From Candidatus Bathyarchaeota archaeon (GTDB lineage: Archaea; Thermoproteota; Bathyarchaeia; Bathyarchaeales; Bathycorpusculaceae): DNA of 64,000 nt. Positions 42,369-55,437 of the stretch are shown in pieces (within the stretch, counting starts at the first letter, position 1; each line of letters starts with the position of its first letter). The notes beneath the pieces were generated by a model. The model ran no database searches, was not told where the DNA came from, and was given only the letters and a program-made list of their open reading frames with translations. Location: assembly GCA_963707955.1 (NCBI GenBank), contig OY970176.1, positions 1,408,001 through 1,472,000 of the forward strand, read 5' to 3'. Made by a program: the position numbers and the translations under genes.

Positions 42369-42500
42369 TGGCGCCGGGGAAGGGACTCGAACCCCTGCGA
42401 GCCCGAAGGCCCACTGGCTCACTTGTCATCATCTATCTGGACCCTTTTTTCCTTGCGAATGATCTCGAGGCCAGCGCGATAACCGCTCCGCCACCCCGGC
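42369..42500 (-). tRNA. tRNA-Ser(CGA) with a 44-nt intron at 37/38 (about 42420-42463); CCA encoded
   Basis: GCCGGGG/CCCCGGC acceptor stem, CTGGC-CT-CGA-G^A-GCCAG anticodon arm, long variable arm, GGTTCGAGTCC T-arm. Confidence 0.95.
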
Positions 42501-45384: not shown

Positions 45385-46383
45385 TCAAGGTTTTTTGGGA
45401 ACCGCCAAGTCAGATATGTCGACACTGTGTTCGTATATCTGCCTCAGAAAAGAGGCCACCGCGAGGATCTGAGGTACAACGTCAAGCGACTGTGCCTGAG
45501 CCAGTTCTTCAATGTTTGCGAACTCCTTCTCAACCTTGTCCCGCGTGCTCCGCACTTTTTCGGCCAAGTTTATGTTGCCAGAGAGAAAAGCGTTCAAGGC
45601 CTCTTCATGAGCCTCGAAGCAAACCGCCTGAAGGCCCGTGAACAATTTTCCGAGGTTCTTACTTATTTTTAGACCTTCTAGCTCAACGGTCTTCTGCGCT
45701 GCTCGGACGCATTCGTCCCCGATGGCCTCTACCAAGCTGGCGGCCAAGCGGTAATCGAGGCACTCAATGGGGCCCACACCCAGCTTCTCACTGAGACTCG
45801 GGTTCTGTATTATCGTGCGCAAAATGCGGACAAGAAGGAAGTACAGCCTGTTACCCTCATCGTCGCGGGCCATAACACTCTTCGCCAATTGCACGTCTCC
45901 CTCAACAAAGGCGTTGACCACGTCTCGGTGCATCCCCGCGGCTATCGCGTACCCCCGTCGCAGAATCTTTTCAGGAGGAAAACCAGAGGGCTCCAACAAA
46001 CACTGCAGAACAATCCCAGAATGATCTTCCTCAACAATCTCCAACCCAACCAAATGGCTAACAGTGCTTTTCACAGCCTCCCGAACCTCAAAGCCCAAGC
46101 GTTCCCTCCCCTCAACCCGAACAACGTCAAAGCCAAGCAGGTATTTACCTATGATTTCACGGCCCAAGTGGGGCCCTGGCTCCAAGACCGCAGTCCTAGG
46201 TGAGGGCTCCGCACCGTATCTCGCGTCGACGATAAGCTTGCCGTCGGCAGCCTCACTGATGCCAACCACCGCTCCACGCTGCAAACCATTCCGCTCCGCC
46301 CAAGCCTTCGGCAAGCAAACGAAGAAAGTGCCTCCGGGCGTGCGCTGAACCTTGCGCAGATCACTCATCTGTTCCGACCTCAT
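45385..46383 (-). CDS. phoU: phosphate uptake regulator PhoU with N-terminal AbrB-like domain
   Basis: RKVQRTPGGTFFVCLPKAW, RDDEGNRLYFL, EAIGD. Confidence 0.9.
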   Translation of the reverse strand: MRSEQMSDLRKVQRTPGGTFFVCLPKAWAERNGLQRGAVVGISEAADGKLIVDARYGAEPSPRTAVLEPGPHLGREIIGKYLLGFDVVRVEGRERLGFEVREAVKSTVSHLVGLEIVEEDHSGIVLQCLLEPSGFPPEKILRRGYAIAAGMHRDVVNAFVEGDVQLAKSVMARDDEGNRLYFLLVRILRTIIQNPSLSEKLGVGPIECLDYRLAASLVEAIGDECVRAAQKTVELEGLKISKNLGKLFTGLQAVCFEAHEEALNAFLSGNINLAEKVRSTRDKVEKEFANIEELAQAQSLDVVPQILAVASFLRQIYEHSVDISDLAVPKKP

Positions 46384-46914: not shown

Positions 46915-48480
46915 ATGAGCGAACCGGAAAAACTCCAGAAAGCCGTAGAACTCACAATCGCTGCAGGCTACCAGCTGAACAAGGAAGCCTTCGAATTCCT
47001 AAGCATGGTAGCCACAACCGACGACCCAGCGAAAATCATGGTCAAAGCAATCCAGCAGATCGAAAGCCTTGAAGAGAAACCCTTCTTCATAGACCGGTGC
47101 TTCCTGGAAGAGTTGCTCAAAACGCCAGAACGAGCAGAGGGAAACGGCGCCCAGCCGTCAGAAGAACGCCTCCAACAAACTCTAGGGGTGCAAGCGCCGC
47201 AGATAACTGAGGCCAAGACGCCCTTCCGCCCATACTCGAAAGACGTTGAAGCCGACATGAAAGTGATCGAAGACCCAGGCTCAAAAATAAGCTCAGCCGG
47301 GACGATCGAAGACTACCTAGGCTACTTTCAAGATAGGTTCAAACAGCTAGAAAAACTGCTAAGACAAAGGATGGACGTCAAAAGCGCAGCCTCGGTCTTG
47401 GACGCAGTGAAGGCCCCATCAAACACGCGACTCAAGATAATAGCAATGGTCACAGAGAAGAGAGAGTCCAAAGAGAAAACGGTGCTGACCGTTGAGGACC
47501 TCAAGGCAAGCGCCATCGTTCTTGTAACACAGAACGCTCCACAAGACCTCCAGAAAAAGGTGCGAATGCTCCTGCTCGACCAAGTCATCTGCCTCAGCGT
47601 CGTCAAGACCAGAAGCAGCTTGCTCGTTGCCGAAGACATAATCCTACCAGACATTGCTCAGAGACCCCAACACAAAGCAACGGCACCAGTCTACGCAGTC
47701 CTCACATCAGACATGCACGTAGGCAGCACACAGTTCACGAAAGAAGCGTTAAACCGCTTCACGCTGTGGCTGAACGGCAAATACGGCGACGACAGGATGA
47801 AGGACATAGCAAGCCACGTCAAATACGTGCTAATCGCAGGGGACATCGTCGACGGAATCGGCGTCTACCCGAACCAAGCAAAAGAACTCGTAATAAGAGA
47901 CGTGAACAAGCAGTACAAGTTTGCCTCAAAGTACATCGAGCAAATCCCCGACTATGTGGAAGTAATAATCACGCCCGGCAACCACGATGCTCCCCGAAAA
48001 GCCCTACCGCAGCCAGCAATATCCAGCTCCTTCCTAGAAACACTCCAAGAATCGAGAAGGGTCCAATCCCTAGGTAGCCCTTGCACCCTAAGCCTCCACG
48101 GCGTAGAAGTGCTCATGTTCCACGGCCGCAGCCTCGACGACATAATCTCCACCGTCCCAGGCATGAGCCACAGCCACCCCGAAAAAGCTATGCAGTTGCT
48201 ACTCCAGACCCGACACCTAGCACCGCTGTACGGCGGTAAAACACCCCTGTCGCCGGAGAGCAAAGACTTCCTCGTTATCGACCGCGTCCCAGATATCTTC
48301 CATGCTGGGCACGTGCACGCACTCGAATACGGCAACTATCGTGGAGTGTTGATCGTAAACTCAGGCTGTTGGCAAAGGCAGACCGGCTACATGCGCAGGA
48401 ACGGCTTTGTTCCGACACCCGCAAAGGTTCCCGTGGTAAACCTTCAAACCCTAGAGGTCACCGTCATCCCGTTTGACTAA
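46915..48480 (+). CDS. polB: DNA polymerase D small subunit DP1
   Basis: SDMHVGS, AGDIVDGIGVYPNQ, PGNHD, HGRSLDD, RHLAP, GHVH. Confidence 0.97.
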   Translation: MSEPEKLQKAVELTIAAGYQLNKEAFEFLSMVATTDDPAKIMVKAIQQIESLEEKPFFIDRCFLEELLKTPERAEGNGAQPSEERLQQTLGVQAPQITEAKTPFRPYSKDVEADMKVIEDPGSKISSAGTIEDYLGYFQDRFKQLEKLLRQRMDVKSAASVLDAVKAPSNTRLKIIAMVTEKRESKEKTVLTVEDLKASAIVLVTQNAPQDLQKKVRMLLLDQVICLSVVKTRSSLLVAEDIILPDIAQRPQHKATAPVYAVLTSDMHVGSTQFTKEALNRFTLWLNGKYGDDRMKDIASHVKYVLIAGDIVDGIGVYPNQAKELVIRDVNKQYKFASKYIEQIPDYVEVIITPGNHDAPRKALPQPAISSSFLETLQESRRVQSLGSPCTLSLHGVEVLMFHGRSLDDIISTVPGMSHSHPEKAMQLLLQTRHLAPLYGGKTPLSPESKDFLVIDRVPDIFHAGHVHALEYGNYRGVLIVNSGCWQRQTGYMRRNGFVPTPAKVPVVNLQTLEVTVIPFD

Positions 48481-48531: not shown

Positions 48532-49782
48532 TTAGCTTCTGCCATCGCTGCGCTTCGAGATGCACTGTACTTCATAATCAACCAGACGGCCAAGTCTACT
48601 ATCCTCAGCAAACACATCTCGAATAAGGCTGCGTGCGATCTCAAGCCGTATCTTCTTCGTCCGCCCGTACCTTCCCATGCTAACGACCCTCGCGTTCAAC
48701 AATCCCATCGCGTCGAGCTCATTTATCAACGTGCTCAAACGCCGCTGGGTCAGCGGCGCAACTCCCAACTCCCCGCTGAGCTCGTCGTAGACCTCAGAGA
48801 TCTCACCCGTAATGGCGCCCCGAGCATCTCTCTTGCCCAAGTGATAGATGCTCAATGTTACGAGCTTCGAATGCAAAGTCAGGTTGCTCAAAGCTTCAAC
48901 AACGCGGTTGTGCTCAATGTGCTTCTCAGCCTCGCGAACATGCTCTTCAGACACTACGGTTAGCCCTTTTCGCTCAGCTACCTCGCCGGCAACGCGCAAA
49001 AGGTCTAAAGCTCGACGCGCATCTCCATGCTCTGCGGCAGCTAGAGCAGCGCAGAGGCCAAGTGCGGCATCGGATAATGCTTTCTGAGTGAAGGCTGCCT
49101 GTGCACGTTCAGCGAGTATGTTTCTCAACTCACCTGCGTCGTAAGGCCTAAAAACAATCTCCTCCTCGCTCAGTGAGCTTAGGACACGCGGATCTAGGAA
49201 TTCTTTGAAGCGCAGGTCGTTAGATATCCCAACAAGCGCTATTTTGCTATGCCTCAGAACCTCGTTCATTCTAGTTAACTCGTACAGAAAAGTGTCCCCA
49301 CGCATCTTTGTCAACGCGTCGGCTTCATCCAGGACCACCAAGAAAATCATGCCCGAAAGGTCCAGACCCGCAGTGAACCTGTCATAGACTTCACCAACGG
49401 ACAATCCTGTGAATGGAACCTGAACACCTAAACTCTGGCACATACTTGCAAAGACCCTGTACTCGGACCCAGCTACCCTGCAGTTGACGTAGCAGAACTT
49501 GAGGGGTGCGTTAAATTCTTTAGCCTTGAACTCAAGGCGAGTCAGAACATACTTGACGACAGCGGTTTTTCCGGTCCCTGTGTTTCCATAGATAAAAATG
49601 TTGGAGCTTCTTGCACCTTTAAGTAAGGGAGCAACAATTTCTCCCAATTGCCTGATCTGCCCTTCTCGGTGAGGAAGCTTGTCTGGGAGATAATCATGTC
49701 GGAGCACCTCTCGATCCTTGAAGACTGTGGCGTTGCTTGCGAAGTTCTCGAAGAGTTCATCAAGAATATCAGCATTACTCAT
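48532..49782 (-). CDS. cdc6: Orc1/Cdc6 replication initiator
   Basis: LPHRE, YGNTGTGKT, LDEAD, HGDARRALDLLR, MGRYGRTKKI. Confidence 0.97.
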   Translation of the reverse strand: MSNADILDELFENFASNATVFKDREVLRHDYLPDKLPHREGQIRQLGEIVAPLLKGARSSNIFIYGNTGTGKTAVVKYVLTRLEFKAKEFNAPLKFCYVNCRVAGSEYRVFASMCQSLGVQVPFTGLSVGEVYDRFTAGLDLSGMIFLVVLDEADALTKMRGDTFLYELTRMNEVLRHSKIALVGISNDLRFKEFLDPRVLSSLSEEEIVFRPYDAGELRNILAERAQAAFTQKALSDAALGLCAALAAAEHGDARRALDLLRVAGEVAERKGLTVVSEEHVREAEKHIEHNRVVEALSNLTLHSKLVTLSIYHLGKRDARGAITGEISEVYDELSGELGVAPLTQRRLSTLINELDAMGLLNARVVSMGRYGRTKKIRLEIARSLIRDVFAEDSRLGRLVDYEVQCISKRSDGRS

Positions 49783-49819
49783 TCAATCAACTCACATAGT
49801 CCAGTAGTAACAAGCGTTC

Positions 49820-50394
49820 TTCCTGTGGAAAACATAAGCCCTGCCGTACAGAAATCTAAATATTAAACACGATAATCCTAAAGAAGGAATACAACTTAAA
49901 CAGTAAACACCCTTCAAAATGAGCAGACACACCCCCCCGCTTCTGGTGGAAACGTTTAGCCTTTGAATTAAATAATGCTGGTCTGTTTTAGGAGAAGTTG
50001 TACTCCTCTAGGTAATTGGGTACTAAGATTATATTTGTTCTCACTAAGAATTTTAGACATTACTAAAAAACATTTTAAACTTAGTCACAGGCAATATAGG
50101 GCTTATAACCTTTCCAATGGAAATAAAGGGGTGTGTCTTCTTTCCAACCCACTATTTATGGTGCGGACTATCAATCAGATCCGTTTTATTATGTTATAGC
50201 CTCCAAGGGCGGATTCTATAGAATCGCCGCCCGACAATGGTGGGCACATTTTTGCCGACTTTCTATTCACTTTCCGTGAAGTCCTTATGAAGTTTATTTG
50301 CCAATGTCGTTTCCACATCCTCCTATTTCCTACAATTGAGTCCTCTATGCTTCTTTTCTGTGAATAGCCCACCCCTACTCTTCCACTGGAAAAC
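49820..50394. other. replication origin oriC (ORB elements and AT-rich DUE)
   Basis: ORBs with G-strings at 49932-49953 (-), 50111-50133 (+, TTTCCAATGGAAATAAAGGGG) and 50368-50394 (-, TTCCAGTGGAAGAGTAGGGG); mini-ORB at 49820-49831; AT-rich 49955-50110; directly upstream of cdc6. Confidence 0.92.
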
Positions 50395-50584
50395 GCGTTT
50401 CGTACCGAGTCTATTCTCATTTTGAGCTTCTGAAAACCTGTTATTCGCGCAACGTCAGTATAGCTGGAAATATCGCTGCTTTATCGGTTTAGAGGCCTTT
50501 CCTTTCCCTTTTGGAGCACAGAGTTCACCGTAACACCTATAGCTTGTGAACTGTGAAATTGTGAACACAGCTGCTAGGTGTAAA

Positions 50585-51031
50585 ATGCCAATGCCGGCAA
50601 CAAAAATGCGCGTCGAACTTTTCGACAGCGAGGGCAACCGTTATTCGATAAGCTTTGAAGGACAGGTCACACGTGATAAGGCGGTGCGGTTGCTCGACTT
50701 GGTGGAACTCCTCGGTGGGGTGCCTGGGGGTGGGGGAAATCCGGATTTCAATCCCACGTTGACTAAAGAACCGTCAAAGTATGACAAGGTTAGAGCGATA
50801 GTTCAAAAGCACTTCCCTTTGGTTTGGTTCTGCTCTAAAGAGGTACAAACTGTGTTCGAGCAGGAGTTCAGAGAGCCAATAGGCCTGAGTACTGTGGCAA
50901 CGTACCTCGCAAGGATGGCAGGAAAGAGGATCCTTATAAAAGCAGGGCCATCCAACAGCTTGAAGTATAAAGCGGCAACAAGTATGCCACAGGTCACCGC
51001 GAAAGTCACGGACATTGCAATGAAACAGTGA
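50585..51031 (+). CDS. origin-adjacent protein: small N-terminal domain, Gly linker, C-terminal winged helix
   Basis: FCSKEV...EPIGLSTVATYLARM...ILIKAG...KYK wHTH pattern. Confidence 0.8.
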   Translation: MPMPATKMRVELFDSEGNRYSISFEGQVTRDKAVRLLDLVELLGGVPGGGGNPDFNPTLTKEPSKYDKVRAIVQKHFPLVWFCSKEVQTVFEQEFREPIGLSTVATYLARMAGKRILIKAGPSNSLKYKAATSMPQVTAKVTDIAMKQ

Positions 51032-51068
51032 ACTCTCACGGCCGCCAGTTTTCATTCAGACAGGCAAG

Positions 51069-51782
51069 CTAGGCAGCTTGATCCTCTGGTTTCCTCAGAA
51101 GTTTCTCCATCTCCTTCTTGGAGCTGTACTTGAACGGGATCTTACTGGTCTCCCTCTCCAAGTATCCTTCTTCGTAGAGCTTCTTCATCAACCTTGCCGT
51201 GTGTTCCCTACTAAGTCTTACTTTCTCCTTTATCTGTGGCGCGGTCTTTGGCCCCTCTGATGCGAGCATCTCCAACACAGCAACTTCTGTTCCCGTCAAC
51301 TGTGCCAACGCCTTGTCTCTCCTTATTGGTATCGCCGCTTCAAGACTGGTTTCAGGAACGGCTGAGAATTGCCTAGCCTGCTGTTCCAAGTTCACAATTT
51401 TTGCTGTGACTGCTTCTTGTGATGCTACTATGTCACGTGTTTTGTTTTCAACTTCAGCTAGCCGGACTGCCAACGTCTCTCTGCCTTCAGAATCGGCACT
51501 GACCTTCGCCTCCGCGGTGCTCATCCTCTTCTCTACATCTCCCATCATGCCGAGTATTCTGTCGCCTTTCGAATCCACAGCCCCAACCTTGTAAGCAAGT
51601 GTCTCCAACTTCTCGCCTTCGCGCCTGAACTGCCTATTGAAGCTCAAAATAATGTCCTCGACCGCTCCTCGTGCTTTTTCATATTCCTTTTTGGATTGGC
51701 GCAACCTACGGTAATATTCCACCGCCGAAACTGCGGTGGTTGCGAGCAGACAACTTACGAGGATGAACAGTAGATAATCCAA
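51069..51782 (-). CDS. membrane-anchored coiled-coil protein with C-terminal winged HTH
   Basis: N-terminal TM (YLLFILVSCLLATTAVSAV) followed by RRLR, a heptad-rich middle, and LTGTEVAVLEML...SREHTARLMKKLYEEGYLER. Confidence 0.85.
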   Translation of the reverse strand: MDYLLFILVSCLLATTAVSAVEYYRRLRQSKKEYEKARGAVEDIILSFNRQFRREGEKLETLAYKVGAVDSKGDRILGMMGDVEKRMSTAEAKVSADSEGRETLAVRLAEVENKTRDIVASQEAVTAKIVNLEQQARQFSAVPETSLEAAIPIRRDKALAQLTGTEVAVLEMLASEGPKTAPQIKEKVRLSREHTARLMKKLYEEGYLERETSKIPFKYSSKKEMEKLLRKPEDQAA

Positions 51783-51794
51783 TAGAAATCCGCC

Positions 51795-52080
51795 TGTGAT
51801 TCAAACGTGATTATGCGTGACTCAAGCACGTTGCATCACACATCACATCTTACCCATGCGGCATTTAAGCCTTATTGTGTGTATCATGGTGGCGAGCAGA
51901 CATGACATCACATGTCACACTTTCAAGTTAAATTAACATGTTGGGTGGCTTGTGAATGCTCTCTAGAAAGAGGGCTGCTGTGGGTTCTTATCCAGATTTG
52001 CGGCGTGATTCTGTCTTCTGCGAAAAGCTATAGTTGCGGGGCATAAGTGCCGTATTGTGGGGCGTGATTTGTGACGTCAC
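51795..52080. repeat. cluster of GTGAY/RTCAC pentamer repeats (array 1)
   Basis: Copies at ~51796, 51807, 51817, 51835, 51842, 51907, 51914, 52005, 52064, 52071, 52076, in both orientations. Confidence 0.75.
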
Positions 52081-52593
52081 ATAAGCCTCGTCGAACGACT
52101 AGAGAGCTCTTTGAGGCTTGTTTCGAGCTGTTGGCGGAGTAAACCTATGATCTTCAGTCGCTCACTGATGCTTGTGCCTTCGCTGATCGCGTTCTTGTAC
52201 CCATCTAGGTATGTGTGCAGTTGGTTCGCGACCTCAAGGTATGGGTCGAGAGACTGTGGTCTCAAAGAGTCCCAAGTACCCCAGCAGTATTACCGTGTAG
52301 ATGGATTTTGTGACATTTTGTTTGGCCTGCCTTAGGGTCCGGTTGAACGCTCCGCGACTGATTTTGGCCTTAGTTAGCCTTAATCGGGCCTTTTCGTCGT
52401 ATTTCAGCGATTTGCCTGCGATATTATCGGACAATATGTCTATGAGGAGTGTTTCGAGCTGGGTTTTTGTTAAATGGCTGTTGTCAGCCATTATTTTGGC
52501 AATTGGGTCGTTGATTGAGCTTTCTAGCAATGAATGAACGCTATCTCTTAGCTTCAAGTCTCGTCGCTCCTGAGATGATGCAAATGAATACAT
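52077..52593 (-). CDS. HTH-like hypothetical protein with a frameshift near 52255
   Basis: SHLTKTQLETLLID...ISRGAFNRTLRQAKQNV...GYLGL, continuing as SLDPYLEVANQL in the adjacent frame. Confidence 0.7.
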
Positions 52594-53133
52594 TTTTGTA
52601 TACAGGGTCGGCTCTTAAGGGTATCGAATTCCGAAGAACCTTGCTTCAAGTCTGGAGGCGCAAGAGCATTGTGCCGGTAGAATCAGAAAATGGTTAGAAG
52701 GAGCAAGCGGTTTCCAAGTTTGACTCTCCCAAGAGGCTTAAACTCATAACGCTTTGTGTACTGTGCCGCTTTTTTGCTTTGGCCCAAAAAACGCCGAGCG
52801 CTTCATTAACCTGGGCGTGTGCAGACCCGATTTGCGCTCTCTGGAGGGATCCTGGTGTGGGCAGTGAGCTGCAAGACAAGCCTATGGAGTCGTAGGAGGC
52901 TAATAGTGGAGAGAGCCTATTGGGTTACGCGCCTAAGTGTGGTCGAAACTGTGACGTGCTGGTGGCAGTTGATGAGGCAGAAGTATTTTCGCTGATTTGA
53001 CCGTCTTTTCGGAGGTGGGTAGTGTGATGCTGCTTCCCAACGTTAGGTTCGTTGTGTAAGCACCCAGTACTCTTGGCTGTGAAGATTTTAGGCAGCATTC
53101 CTTTGTTAGAAAATACGGCTTGAAGCAATGGTT

Positions 53134-53295
53134 TGTGATGTGACACCACCCGTCACGCTTGAATCACGTGTGATGACCCCCAATTTCCAAACAGCTCGGC
53201 TGCTACAGTTCTTTCCGTCAATGACGCTATTCCCTTGGGAGCGCGGCGGTTGAGCGTGACATGATTGTGATTTGTGATCAGTGCACGAGATGATA
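53134..53295. repeat. cluster of GTGAY/RTCAC pentamer repeats (array 2)
   Basis: Copies at ~53135, 53140, 53152, 53163, 53170, 53256, 53267, 53274, plus ATGAY variants. Confidence 0.75.
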
Positions 53296-53378
53296 GTTCG
53301 TAATGATATCTGGTTGATTGTCTGGCGACTTTCCAAGAATGCGTAAACGGTTCTTGGCGGTTAACTTGTTTCTCAGGC

Positions 53379-55173: not shown

Positions 55174-55437
55174 ATGGGTAGAAGAAGGAAAAAGGTTGTA
55201 CGAATCCCTAGGAAACATCTTCCAAGACTGTTCCCTTGCCCCAGGTGTGGGAAGGAAACGGTGAGGGTTGAGATTCTTCGTGAGGAAGGATGCGCAGTCG
55301 TTGGATGCGGTAGCTGTGGTCTCAAGGAGCGGTTCCCAGTTAAGCCTGCTCAGGCTGAGGTCGACGTTTACTGCATGTTCACCGATAAGACGTATGGCCA
55401 GTCTCGAAGGCCCTCTGCTGTGATCAAGGGTGCCTGA
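55174..55437 (+). CDS. elf1: transcription elongation factor Elf1
   Basis: MGRRRKK...FPCPRC...CGSCG...VDVYCMFTD. Confidence 0.9.
   Translation: MGRRRKKVVRIPRKHLPRLFPCPRCGKETVRVEILREEGCAVVGCGSCGLKERFPVKPAQAEVDVYCMFTDKTYGQSRRPSAVIKGA

Follow-up and report, generated by a model that had tools for sequence, protein, structure and literature searches.

A candidate membrane-anchored winged-helix protein and its compact GTGAY arrays beside a predicted replication origin in Bathyarchaeia

What purpose is served by a short DNA word packed, beside a predicted replication origin, more densely than anywhere else in the genome, around the gene of a putative membrane-anchored DNA-binding protein? The question is raised by a 64,000-nucleotide stretch of a Candidatus Bathyarchaeota archaeon genome (assembly GCA_963707955.1, contig OY970176.1, positions 1,408,001 to 1,472,000; hereafter the window, to whose first letter coordinates refer unless the contig is named), in which GTGAY and its complement RTCAC cluster around two adjacent genes, here called B (51069-51782, minus strand, 237 aa) and C (52077-52593, minus strand). 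A preliminary description of the window had grouped both with a third gene, A, as a candidate origin-tethering or segregation module. The arrays, their conservation, their co-occurrence with B, the domain layout of B and the neighbourhood of the origin (oriC) and the initiator gene Orc1/Cdc6 are established directly in what follows. We propose, from comparison of these sequences across archaeal genomes, that B may bind the arrays, form a membrane-attached complex beside oriC and also autoregulate its own gene, a reading to which we assign a probability of roughly 0.4.

Counted over the whole window, GTGAY/RTCAC is not enriched (195 matches against 210 +/- 13 in shuffles); the sites are instead locally clustered, with 11 in 51796-52080, 8 in 53135-53278, and two more at 52951 and 53024, forming a single cluster of about 1.5 kb rather than a dispersed set. 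The copy numbers of 11 and 8 given in the preliminary description are thereby reproduced, and the genome-wide density scan it had suggested ranks the two clusters first and second (11 per 300 bp and 8 per 150 bp) among 7287 sites in 2,346,764 bases (3.1 per kb). The next-densest genomic clusters fall in coding regions rich in N-V-T codons and are without the composite units that characterize the present locus. The first cluster occupies the intergenic region between B and C (IG1, 51783-52076) and comprises three blocks. Block 1 (51796-51846), beside the B start, reads GTGAT-N6-GTGAT-N5-GTGAC and then ATCAC-N2-ATCAC; block 2 (51902-51918, minus strand) is a composite 17-nt unit, GTGACATGTGATGTCAT; and block 3 (52064-52080, plus strand; GTGATTTGTGACGTCAC), which runs over the C stop codon, holds the palindrome GTGACGTCAC (52071-52080). 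A TATA-like CATTTAAG (51862-51869), located between the first two blocks, belongs to a conserved A+TTAA..TT column block in a 21-locus alignment and is a possible promoter of B; a T-rich stretch is also found inside IG1. The second cluster, array 2 (53135-53278), consists of GTGATGTGAC..GTCAC..ATCACGTGTGAT together with GTGAC-N6-GTGAT-N2-GTGAT, and is situated about 0.55-0.7 kb upstream of C within a 785-bp stretch (IG2, 52594-53378). The arrays thus flank C about 1.05 kb apart (end of block 3 at 52080, start of array 2 at 53135), at 1.3-3.5 kb from the origin recognition box (ORB)-like repeats of the predicted oriC. The genome holds two copies of the composite 17-nt unit GTGAYNNGTGAYRTMAY, both located in IG1, and a single copy of the triple direct repeat spaced at 10-11 bp. 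The 10-11 bp phasing and the inverted pairs noticed at the outset recur on inspection, the former at 51796/51807/51817 and 53256/53267 and the latter in the palindrome. Favoured spacings between sites are 5 (the palindrome), 7, 10-11, 21 and 30-32 bp, which suggests many copies of a DNA-binding protein packed along and around the helix. An identification of the arrays as ORB or mini-ORB boxes was rejected, as the motif differs.

Within the order of the window organism, B was found in 34 of 41 relatives, and about 18.7 kb around B were fetched for 20 of these 34, picked to span genus, family and order; as relatives are not independent, all counts reported here describe a pattern and are not a statistical test. 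In each of the 20, the genes for the small subunit of DNA polymerase D (PolD-S), Cdc6, A, B and C follow in the same order, and GTGAY sites number 7-12 in the B-C interval and 6-14 beyond C. Including the window (21 loci), the densest 300-bp count near B/C has a median of 11 (8-12), against 4 (3-6) elsewhere. The layout of the sites is kept almost base for base in 20/20 relatives and the DNA between the blocks diverges. Offsets of IG1 sites from the B start are nearly fixed (+14, +25, +35, +53, +60, +125, +132, +282, +289 and +294), the first five, which make up block 1, being shared by most of the 20 relatives. In alignment, block 1 reads tGTGAT-N6-GTGAT-N5-GTGAC...gcATCACacATCACa and is followed by a conserved TATA-like cATTTAAg, block 2 reads catGACATCACacGTCACa, and block 3 reads GTGATttGTGAYGTCAC, again overlapping the C stop codon.

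The 785-bp stretch holding array 2 had been taken for non-coding; it proves to be the relic of a class I/II aminotransferase gene (52594-53378, plus strand) that has kept the sites. At this position nine relatives possess a near-full-length aminotransferase (Pfam-confirmed in one), whose intact codons hold the array (...DVTSLITKKSRVI... and ...ERDLIVISDE...), and the window's frame translations still show DVTPPVTLESRVM and ERDMIVICDQ, read across frames and interrupted by stops and shifts. This likeness was recognised by eye in the frame translations; a tblastn search of IG2 at E 1e-3 returned no aminotransferase remnant. Decayed or partly deleted copies are found in the window and in seven relatives (L013, L014, L022, L023, L025, L026 and L028); there, the flanks cannot be aligned and some copies lack about 50 nt between sub-blocks, but the GTGAY sites are kept. 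An aminotransferase paralogue located at another place in the window genome has 4 sites per 150 bp, from which it follows that the coding sequence is predisposed to GTGAY. The possibility that the IG2 cluster is a mere by-product of aminotransferase codons was nevertheless rejected, in that the sites outlast decay and partial deletion of the gene and appear likewise in another gene, NadE, in other families. As an observation apart, an aminotransferase gene is located between C and a CN-hydrolase gene in L016-L021, L024, L027, L029, L030 and L032, and its loss has apparently taken place in several genera, given IG2 lengths of 319-788 bp.

In two families of the class (f24 and f34), NadE takes the place of the aminotransferase upstream of C, and the upstream array is written into its codons (e.g. 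ERDITP = GTGATATCAC), lying in f24 about 370-670 bp upstream of C. NadE genes that adjoin C carry 6-9 sites per 150 bp in 5/5 cases (L036-L038, L050 and L052), compared with no more than 3 in 22 of the 23 listed NadE genes that do not adjoin C, the remaining one having 5; the window's own NadE has a single GTGAY site. An array some 0.4-0.7 kb upstream of C therefore seems to be selected whatever gene is there. The NadE array itself has the appearance of a cis-element array overlapping coding sequence.

Which of the neighbouring genes do the arrays accompany? A survey of the class, based on an even sample of 151 genomes, identified B in 120 and C in 130. At 20 loci fetched from other Bathyarchaeia families, B is adjacent to C in 20/20, and the median of the densest 300-bp GTGAY count is 11.5 (7-13) inside a 1.5-kb distance of B/C, against 4 (2-6) elsewhere; arrays are thus present in 41/41 Bathyarchaeia loci with B. 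Their core in the other families is the palindrome GTGAYRTCAC at the C 3' end, often with GTGAT-N2-5 before it. Four families (f14, f23, f26 and f28) retain C (3/3, 3/3, 6/7 and 4/4 genomes) with B reported in only 0/3, 1/3, 1/7 and 0/4, and no B beyond weak coiled-coil matches. At 10 B-less loci fetched from these families, C and Cdc6 are kept in 10/10 and A in 9/10, and none of the 10 has arrays or palindromes (1-3 sites per 300 bp near C versus 2-4 elsewhere). Conversely, A is absent from f24 and f34 (0/5 genomes) and the arrays are retained. Outside the class, the Nitrosopumilaceae (f37) possess a B homologue with transmembrane helix, coiled coil and the helix RSREHTSRLMKKLFE; of 80 loci fetched, 66 had full flanks, and in 66/66 of these the densest GTGAY window lies no more than 500 bp upstream of B; its median is 11 sites per 400 bp, versus 1.3 elsewhere. 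B-like proteins of f41 and f54 that lack the transmembrane helix have a different recognition helix and no clear array (two loci only), and no B-like match was found in 11/11 f44 genomes of the phylum sample. Since C without B has no arrays (with G078, considered below, as one exception), arrays persist without A, and the Nitrosopumilaceae arrays are positioned at B, the comparison points to arrays that go with B rather than with A or C, and hence to B as their partner. The conservation of GTGAY clusters, which had been put forward as a check, thus holds at the sampled Bathyarchaeia and Nitrosopumilaceae loci with B and fails at the 10 loci without it. Nor do the three genes behave as one module: A goes with Cdc6 and oriC, the arrays go with B, and C persists without arrays.

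The architecture of B matches the shape first ascribed to it, that of a transmembrane helix followed by a coiled coil and a C-terminal winged helix-turn-helix (wHTH) domain, as judged from Pfam matches, hydropathy and linker periodicity. Residues 3-21 form a predicted transmembrane helix (Kyte-Doolittle 19-residue maximum 2.24) and are followed by RRLRQSKK, which by the positive-inside rule places the subsequent chain on the cytoplasmic side, with about 2 residues predicted to lie outside. Next comes a heptad-periodic linker of about 120 residues, in which a 3.5-residue hydrophobic periodicity is found in 21/21 homologues (z 2.1-13.4). Residues 161-220 score above the Pfam cut-offs (given in brackets, in bits) of several winged-helix families, namely HTH_27 at 31.3 (22.2), MarR at 30.6 (24.6), MarR_2 at 28.9 (27) and TrmB at 27.3 (25.6), and B accordingly passes the thresholds of PF01047, PF01978 and PF13463 that define a MarR/TrmB-type winged helix; the match to Lrs14 is weak (E 1.8e-5, below cut-off), and no MerR family appears among its 16 Pfam matches at E up to 1. 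The canonical MarR fold is a small soluble dimer with N- and C-terminal helices as dimer interface, from which B departs in having a transmembrane helix and 120-residue linker before the wHTH and about 17 residues after it. The recognition helix LSREHTARLMKKLYE.GYLER does not vary among 21 sequences from the order, and that of Nitrosopumilaceae is nearly identical. One protein hence combines, in all three cases as sequence predictions, a DNA-binding domain with a coiled coil and a membrane attachment, and its 3751 homologues are mostly unnamed.

The neighbourhood in which B and the arrays are found is that of a predicted replication origin. An Orc1/Cdc6 initiator gene (48532-49782, minus strand, 416 aa; Pfam Cdc6_C 4.8e-25, Cdc6_lid 4.2e-24) adjoins an oriC-like region (49819-50392), where a repeat search identified ORB-like TTCCANTGGAAA with a G/C string, in inverted copies around an AT-rich stretch. 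A Cdc6 gene, an AT-rich stretch and inverted ORB boxes constitute the usual build of an archaeal oriC, and the same arrangement is present here, the GC content dipping to 0.37-0.39 in the ORB-box stretch of the window's GC profile; GC skew gave no origin signal and is uninformative. The predicted oriC beside Cdc6 is therefore supported by the ORB-like inverted repeats, in agreement with the adjacency claimed in the preliminary description, and in most relatives ORB-like boxes are likewise clustered between Cdc6 and A. Counted within a fetched 9 kb, Cdc6 lies near B/C at 21/21 order loci, counting the window and all 20 relatives (1.2-3.9 kb), at 14/20 other class loci and at 66/66 Nitrosopumilaceae loci, a linkage that is common among these loci and lacking at the six remaining class loci considered below. 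Gene order in Nitrosopumilaceae is GGGPS (geranylgeranylglyceryl phosphate synthase)-C-array-B-A-Cdc6-PolD-S, and at two rearranged loci of another family (f35), A, B, C and Cdc6 stay together though PolD has moved.

Taken together, we infer that B may be the binder of the arrays, that it may reside in the membrane, and that the purpose of the pair may be to tether or position origin-proximal DNA. A single N-terminal helix would hold B in the membrane, and the long coiled coil, probably dimeric, would carry the winged helix into the cytoplasm, where it would recognise GTGAY. About 20 copies of the word, arranged as GTGAYRTCAC palindromes and as 7-bp and 10-11-bp repeats in three clusters within 1.5 kb (over the B promoter, at the C 3' end and about 0.6 kb upstream of C), could then gather many bound B molecules into one membrane-attached nucleoprotein patch, 1.3-3.5 kb from the oriC ORB boxes. 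Given that sites lie between the TATA-like box and the B start codon, the same complex should also repress B, and binding would thereby throttle B synthesis, just as plasmid centromere-binding proteins repress their own synthesis. Array sites flanking C about 1 kb apart could, in addition, loop C.

Several observations weigh against this proposal. The sites are all confined to some 1.5 kb surrounding the promoter of B itself, as is classic for an autoregulator, and half-sites 5 or 7 bp apart are closer than the usual span of a wHTH dimer. A ParA-type motor is absent nearby: ParA/CbiA (PF01656), the sole ATPase family searched, has 8 matches in the genome and none in the window (contig 1408001-1472000), the nearest being at contig position 1485496, which concurs with the earlier statement that no ParA or SegA is encoded in the window; an ATPase encoded with the DNA-binding protein, as in ParABS or SegAB, was accordingly not found by the PF01656 search. 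Six of the 20 class loci, from f24 and f34, keep B, C and arrays with no Cdc6, A or ORB cluster nearby, which implies that origin adjacency is common and not required; the alignments indicate that A travels with Cdc6-1/oriC and that B, C and the arrays can do without them. All five f24/f34 genomes have Cdc6 matches elsewhere (one in four genomes, two in G180), and in the single-contig G159 the match is about 344 kb from B. Moreover, the whole 15-kb block (PolD, Cdc6, Elf1, GGGPS) is syntenic, so that origin proximity could be an inherited neighbourhood. In one genome, G078 (86% complete), GTGAYRTCAC palindromes flank C and B was not found, and the B-less loci, from four families, may equal one or two losses. 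Lastly, the sites of the bacterial tethers RicO and RacA are spread over hundreds of kb (bioRxiv 10.64898/2026.03.06.710092).

The main rival to tethering is plain autoregulation, which we regard as somewhat unlikely and the strongest of the alternatives. B, alone or with C, would act as a local repressor whose operators form a repression loop setting B and C levels; the membrane anchor would sequester or release the regulator, e.g. through proteolysis, and nearness to oriC would be inherited synteny. The placement of sites between the TATA-like box and the B start codon is in keeping with such a scheme, as is the confinement of the genome's candidate sites to this locus. The spacing of the arrays on the two sides of C (about 1.05 kb in the window, with the f24 array about 370-670 bp upstream of C) suits a loop, and the persistence of arrays where Cdc6, A and ORB boxes are missing, together with the synteny of the whole block, speaks for the same reading. 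However, such a regulator would target only itself and one small neighbour, with no evident output, and some 20 sites in three clusters, even within the coding sequence of two unrelated genes, far exceed what known simple operators need. B also has almost no extracellular part with which to sense a signal (about 2 residues), and its linkage to Cdc6 survives the f35 rearrangement and spans two classes.

An alternative that we consider improbable is that C, or some unlinked factor, binds the arrays and that B is a neighbour or partner. C has arrays to either side, which also reach across its stop codon; in G078 the palindromes flank C with B not found; and C is adjacent to B in 20/20 other class loci and persists in a diverged short form in Nitrosopumilaceae. 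Against this, 10 loci keep C, with its helix SRG(A/S)F.RT largely conserved, and have no arrays, and the same motif is used in two classes across which the B recognition helix is conserved but C has strongly diverged. The nature of C itself also bears on the matter. Its predicted product is helical, with a possible sigma-70-region-4-like helix-turn-helix (HTH), a C-terminal helical hairpin and a likely TTG start at about 52557. In the window, a 1-nt insertion near 52253 breaks C into frames of 119 aa (52234-52593) and 62 aa (52077-52265); compared with two congeners, the sequence reads accacaGTctc against accacaA-ctc. C is a single open reading frame (ORF) of 149-160 aa, mostly with a TTG start, in 19/19 aligned relatives (159 aa at full length), and other copies are likewise one ORF, save in two genomes with an internal TAA. 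Either an assembly error or a genuine inactivating mutation may account for the insertion; an overlapping gene pair (C and C2) or a programmed frameshift was rejected, given that relatives have one ORF in one frame. The HTH-like protein first described therefore stands as a single gene, frameshifted here, whose HTH is a weak lead only: an Atlas structure search gave template modelling scores of 0.33-0.38 to sigma-70 models. The all-helical model of C has a predicted local distance difference test (pLDDT) value of 69.1; no Pfam family was assigned and nothing significant was returned from Pfam or NCBIfam; Foldseek found no PDB match at E 1e-3 or better, and sequence-profile searches gave 0 PDB matches at E up to 10. 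A wide structure search recovered a generic C-terminal helical hairpin only (Z about 8, residues 102-159), the N-terminal part being barely probed. Homologues of C form 301 representative clusters in 1.84 billion proteins; in Nitrosopumilaceae C is short and diverged, is overlapped by sites at its 3' end, and is detected by tblastn in 27/66 loci. A complex predicted from two copies each of B(26-237) and C received no support (score 0.00), which is uninformative on binding. In G078 (L065, 5077-6560 for the region with C and its palindromes), the gene beside C is a 227-aa ORF with HTH and CBS-like parts, partly masked.

That the arrays are instead an RNA or structural DNA element, such as leader or non-coding RNA hairpins or a replication-related barrier, is very improbable: the inverted GTGAY/RTCAC words could pair, and IG1 has its conserved TATA-like box and T-rich stretch, but no Rfam family matches the locus, the words are invariant rather than covarying, and they are found on either strand, spaced by helical distances, and within the coding sequence of genes that differ between lineages, which fits recognition of duplex DNA better than one transcript. 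The remaining probability belongs to something not considered here.

The proposal that B tethers the arrays may be extended, speculatively, into a broader one, in which B and the arrays would constitute an archaeal chromosome-membrane attachment site, providing motor-free positioning or segregation of the kind envisaged in the replicon model in both Bathyarchaeia and Nitrosopumilaceae. We hold it doubtful that the origin region, once newly replicated, is fixed to the envelope in this way through a compact, centromere-like array next to oriC, and equally doubtful that selection on the array for such a role was strong enough to be written into the codons of the C-adjoining gene.

Systems of comparable build are known from bacteria. 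RacA (Bacillus subtilis), RocS (Streptococcus pneumoniae) and RicO (Staphylococcus aureus) combine a sequence-specific winged-helix DNA-binding domain, a coiled coil and membrane attachment, tether origins through sites near the origin with no dedicated ATPase for anchoring, and, in the case of RocS, tolerate replacement of the amphipathic helix by unrelated transmembrane domains (bioRxiv 10.64898/2026.03.06.710092). B has the three-part build in common with them, known here from sequence prediction, and is not homologous: its wHTH is of MarR/TrmB rather than MerR type, with no MerR homology found, and the order is reversed, with an N-terminal anchor and a C-terminal wHTH. Its predicted anchor is a transmembrane helix rather than an amphipathic helix or DivIVA, it is archaeal, and its sites are about 20 short half-sites in 1.5 kb around its own gene, as opposed to the 9-25 longer sites over 400-700 kb of the bacterial tethers. 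In terms of site organisation, B recalls another group of systems. Iteron centromeres that double as operators, e.g. ParR/parC of R1 and omega of pSM19035 with its WATCACW heptads, consist of short repeats, direct and inverted, that are spaced by 7 bp or 10-11 bp and cover the promoter of the binder's operon, as would be the case here, and the ATCAC/GTGAT core word matches the omega heptad. The ParR and omega binders are ribbon-helix-helix proteins working with a ParM or ParA motor, from which B differs in being a wHTH protein with a predicted membrane anchor and with no ParA/CbiA-type gene in the window. SegAB of Sulfolobus is reported to comprise a DNA-binding protein that recognises specific sites near its own operon and has been proposed to serve chromosome segregation, and SegB is said to act with the ParA-like SegA encoded beside it; B, by comparison, has no such ATPase nearby (PF01656) and is predicted to be membrane-anchored. 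The TrmBL1 site TATCAC-N5-GTGATA has the GTGA/TCAC half-site in common with the arrays. MarR, TrmB and Lrs14 regulators are small soluble dimers with regulons, in contrast to which B adds a predicted transmembrane helix and 120-residue coiled coil and has candidate sites at one locus. The B/array system accordingly resembles both bacterial origin tethers and operator-doubling iteron centromeres, and differs from them in fold order, anchor, domain of life and site organisation. A search of open papers and preprints, with subscription journals and supplements outside its scope, found no description of the B family, the arrays or any archaeal origin-membrane tether.

Gene A (50591-51031, plus strand, 146 aa; alternative ATG at 50585) is best treated as a separate Cdc6/oriC-linked wHTH protein that probably has its own operator. 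It had been described as a two-domain wHTH protein; the AlphaFold model (pLDDT 74.9) retains the C-terminal winged helix, but only that one, preceded by an N-terminal beta-hairpin and helix. In Foldseek it resembles the DNA-binding domains of Fur, BlaI and PadR (E about 1e-2); Pfam and NCBIfam assigned it to no family, and its more than 5000 homologues are unnamed. Upstream, at the A promoter, lies an operator-like element (50523-50566, plus strand), composed of GTTCAC (50523-50528), a TATA-like CTATAG (50537-50542) and GTGAAC/GTGAA/GTGAAC (50546-50566), and conserved in 16/16 aligned relatives. The triple TGTGAA repeat already seen before A is part of it (GTGAA x3 at 50546-50566), and is a class of site distinct from GTGAY; 50523-50566 probably serves as the operator of A itself, bordering oriC. 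This TTCAC-N17-GTGAA element is also found at loci without B, TTCAC...GTGAA occurring upstream of A in most of the other Bathyarchaeia loci printed and in 8/9 B-less loci with A; L060 has TTCAC only, and Nitrosopumilaceae have GTTAAC repeats instead. Between A and B, 7/20 order relatives carry a two-gene insert of about 2.7 kb (L018 6409-8992; L019, L023 and L029-L032), encoding a 351-aa protein without Pfam family and a 519-aa HerA-type ATPase (DUF87, 3.4e-11), to which the window genome's only weak matches are about 490 kb away.

The remainder of the block is made up of familiar genes. A PhoU/AbrB-type gene (45385-46383, minus strand) and the PolD small subunit gene (46915-48480, plus strand) precede Cdc6, and beyond IG2 follow CN-hydrolase, NAD synthase (NadE), an Elf1-like zinc ribbon (55174-55437, plus strand; PF05129, 1.4e-16), GGGP synthase (PcrB) and the PolD large subunit; the zinc ribbon is located between NadE and GGGP synthase in nearly every fetched locus. 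The genome has two Cdc6 genes, the second at contig position 692207-692458, outside the window (408-aa frame, Cdc6_C 4.0e-20), and the f24 and f34 families seemingly retain only a Cdc6 that scores like this one at about 692 kb. A probable intron-containing tRNA was also detected at 42372-42500 (minus strand; 129 nt versus a 71-position model, Rfam 44.3 bits).

Chromosome organisation and segregation in archaea beyond Sulfolobus and haloarchaea are largely unknown, and the locus provides a testable pair for their study, comprising one conserved protein and one compact, unique cis element. This pair is common to the uncultured Bathyarchaeia and to Nitrosopumilaceae, the latter including cultured ammonia oxidisers. 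Should the system turn out to be only regulatory, it would still be unusual, as an operator array lying within the coding sequence of two unrelated neighbour genes and surviving the decay of one of them, and as a wHTH protein that joins a transmembrane helix to a coiled coil and has only one target on the chromosome.

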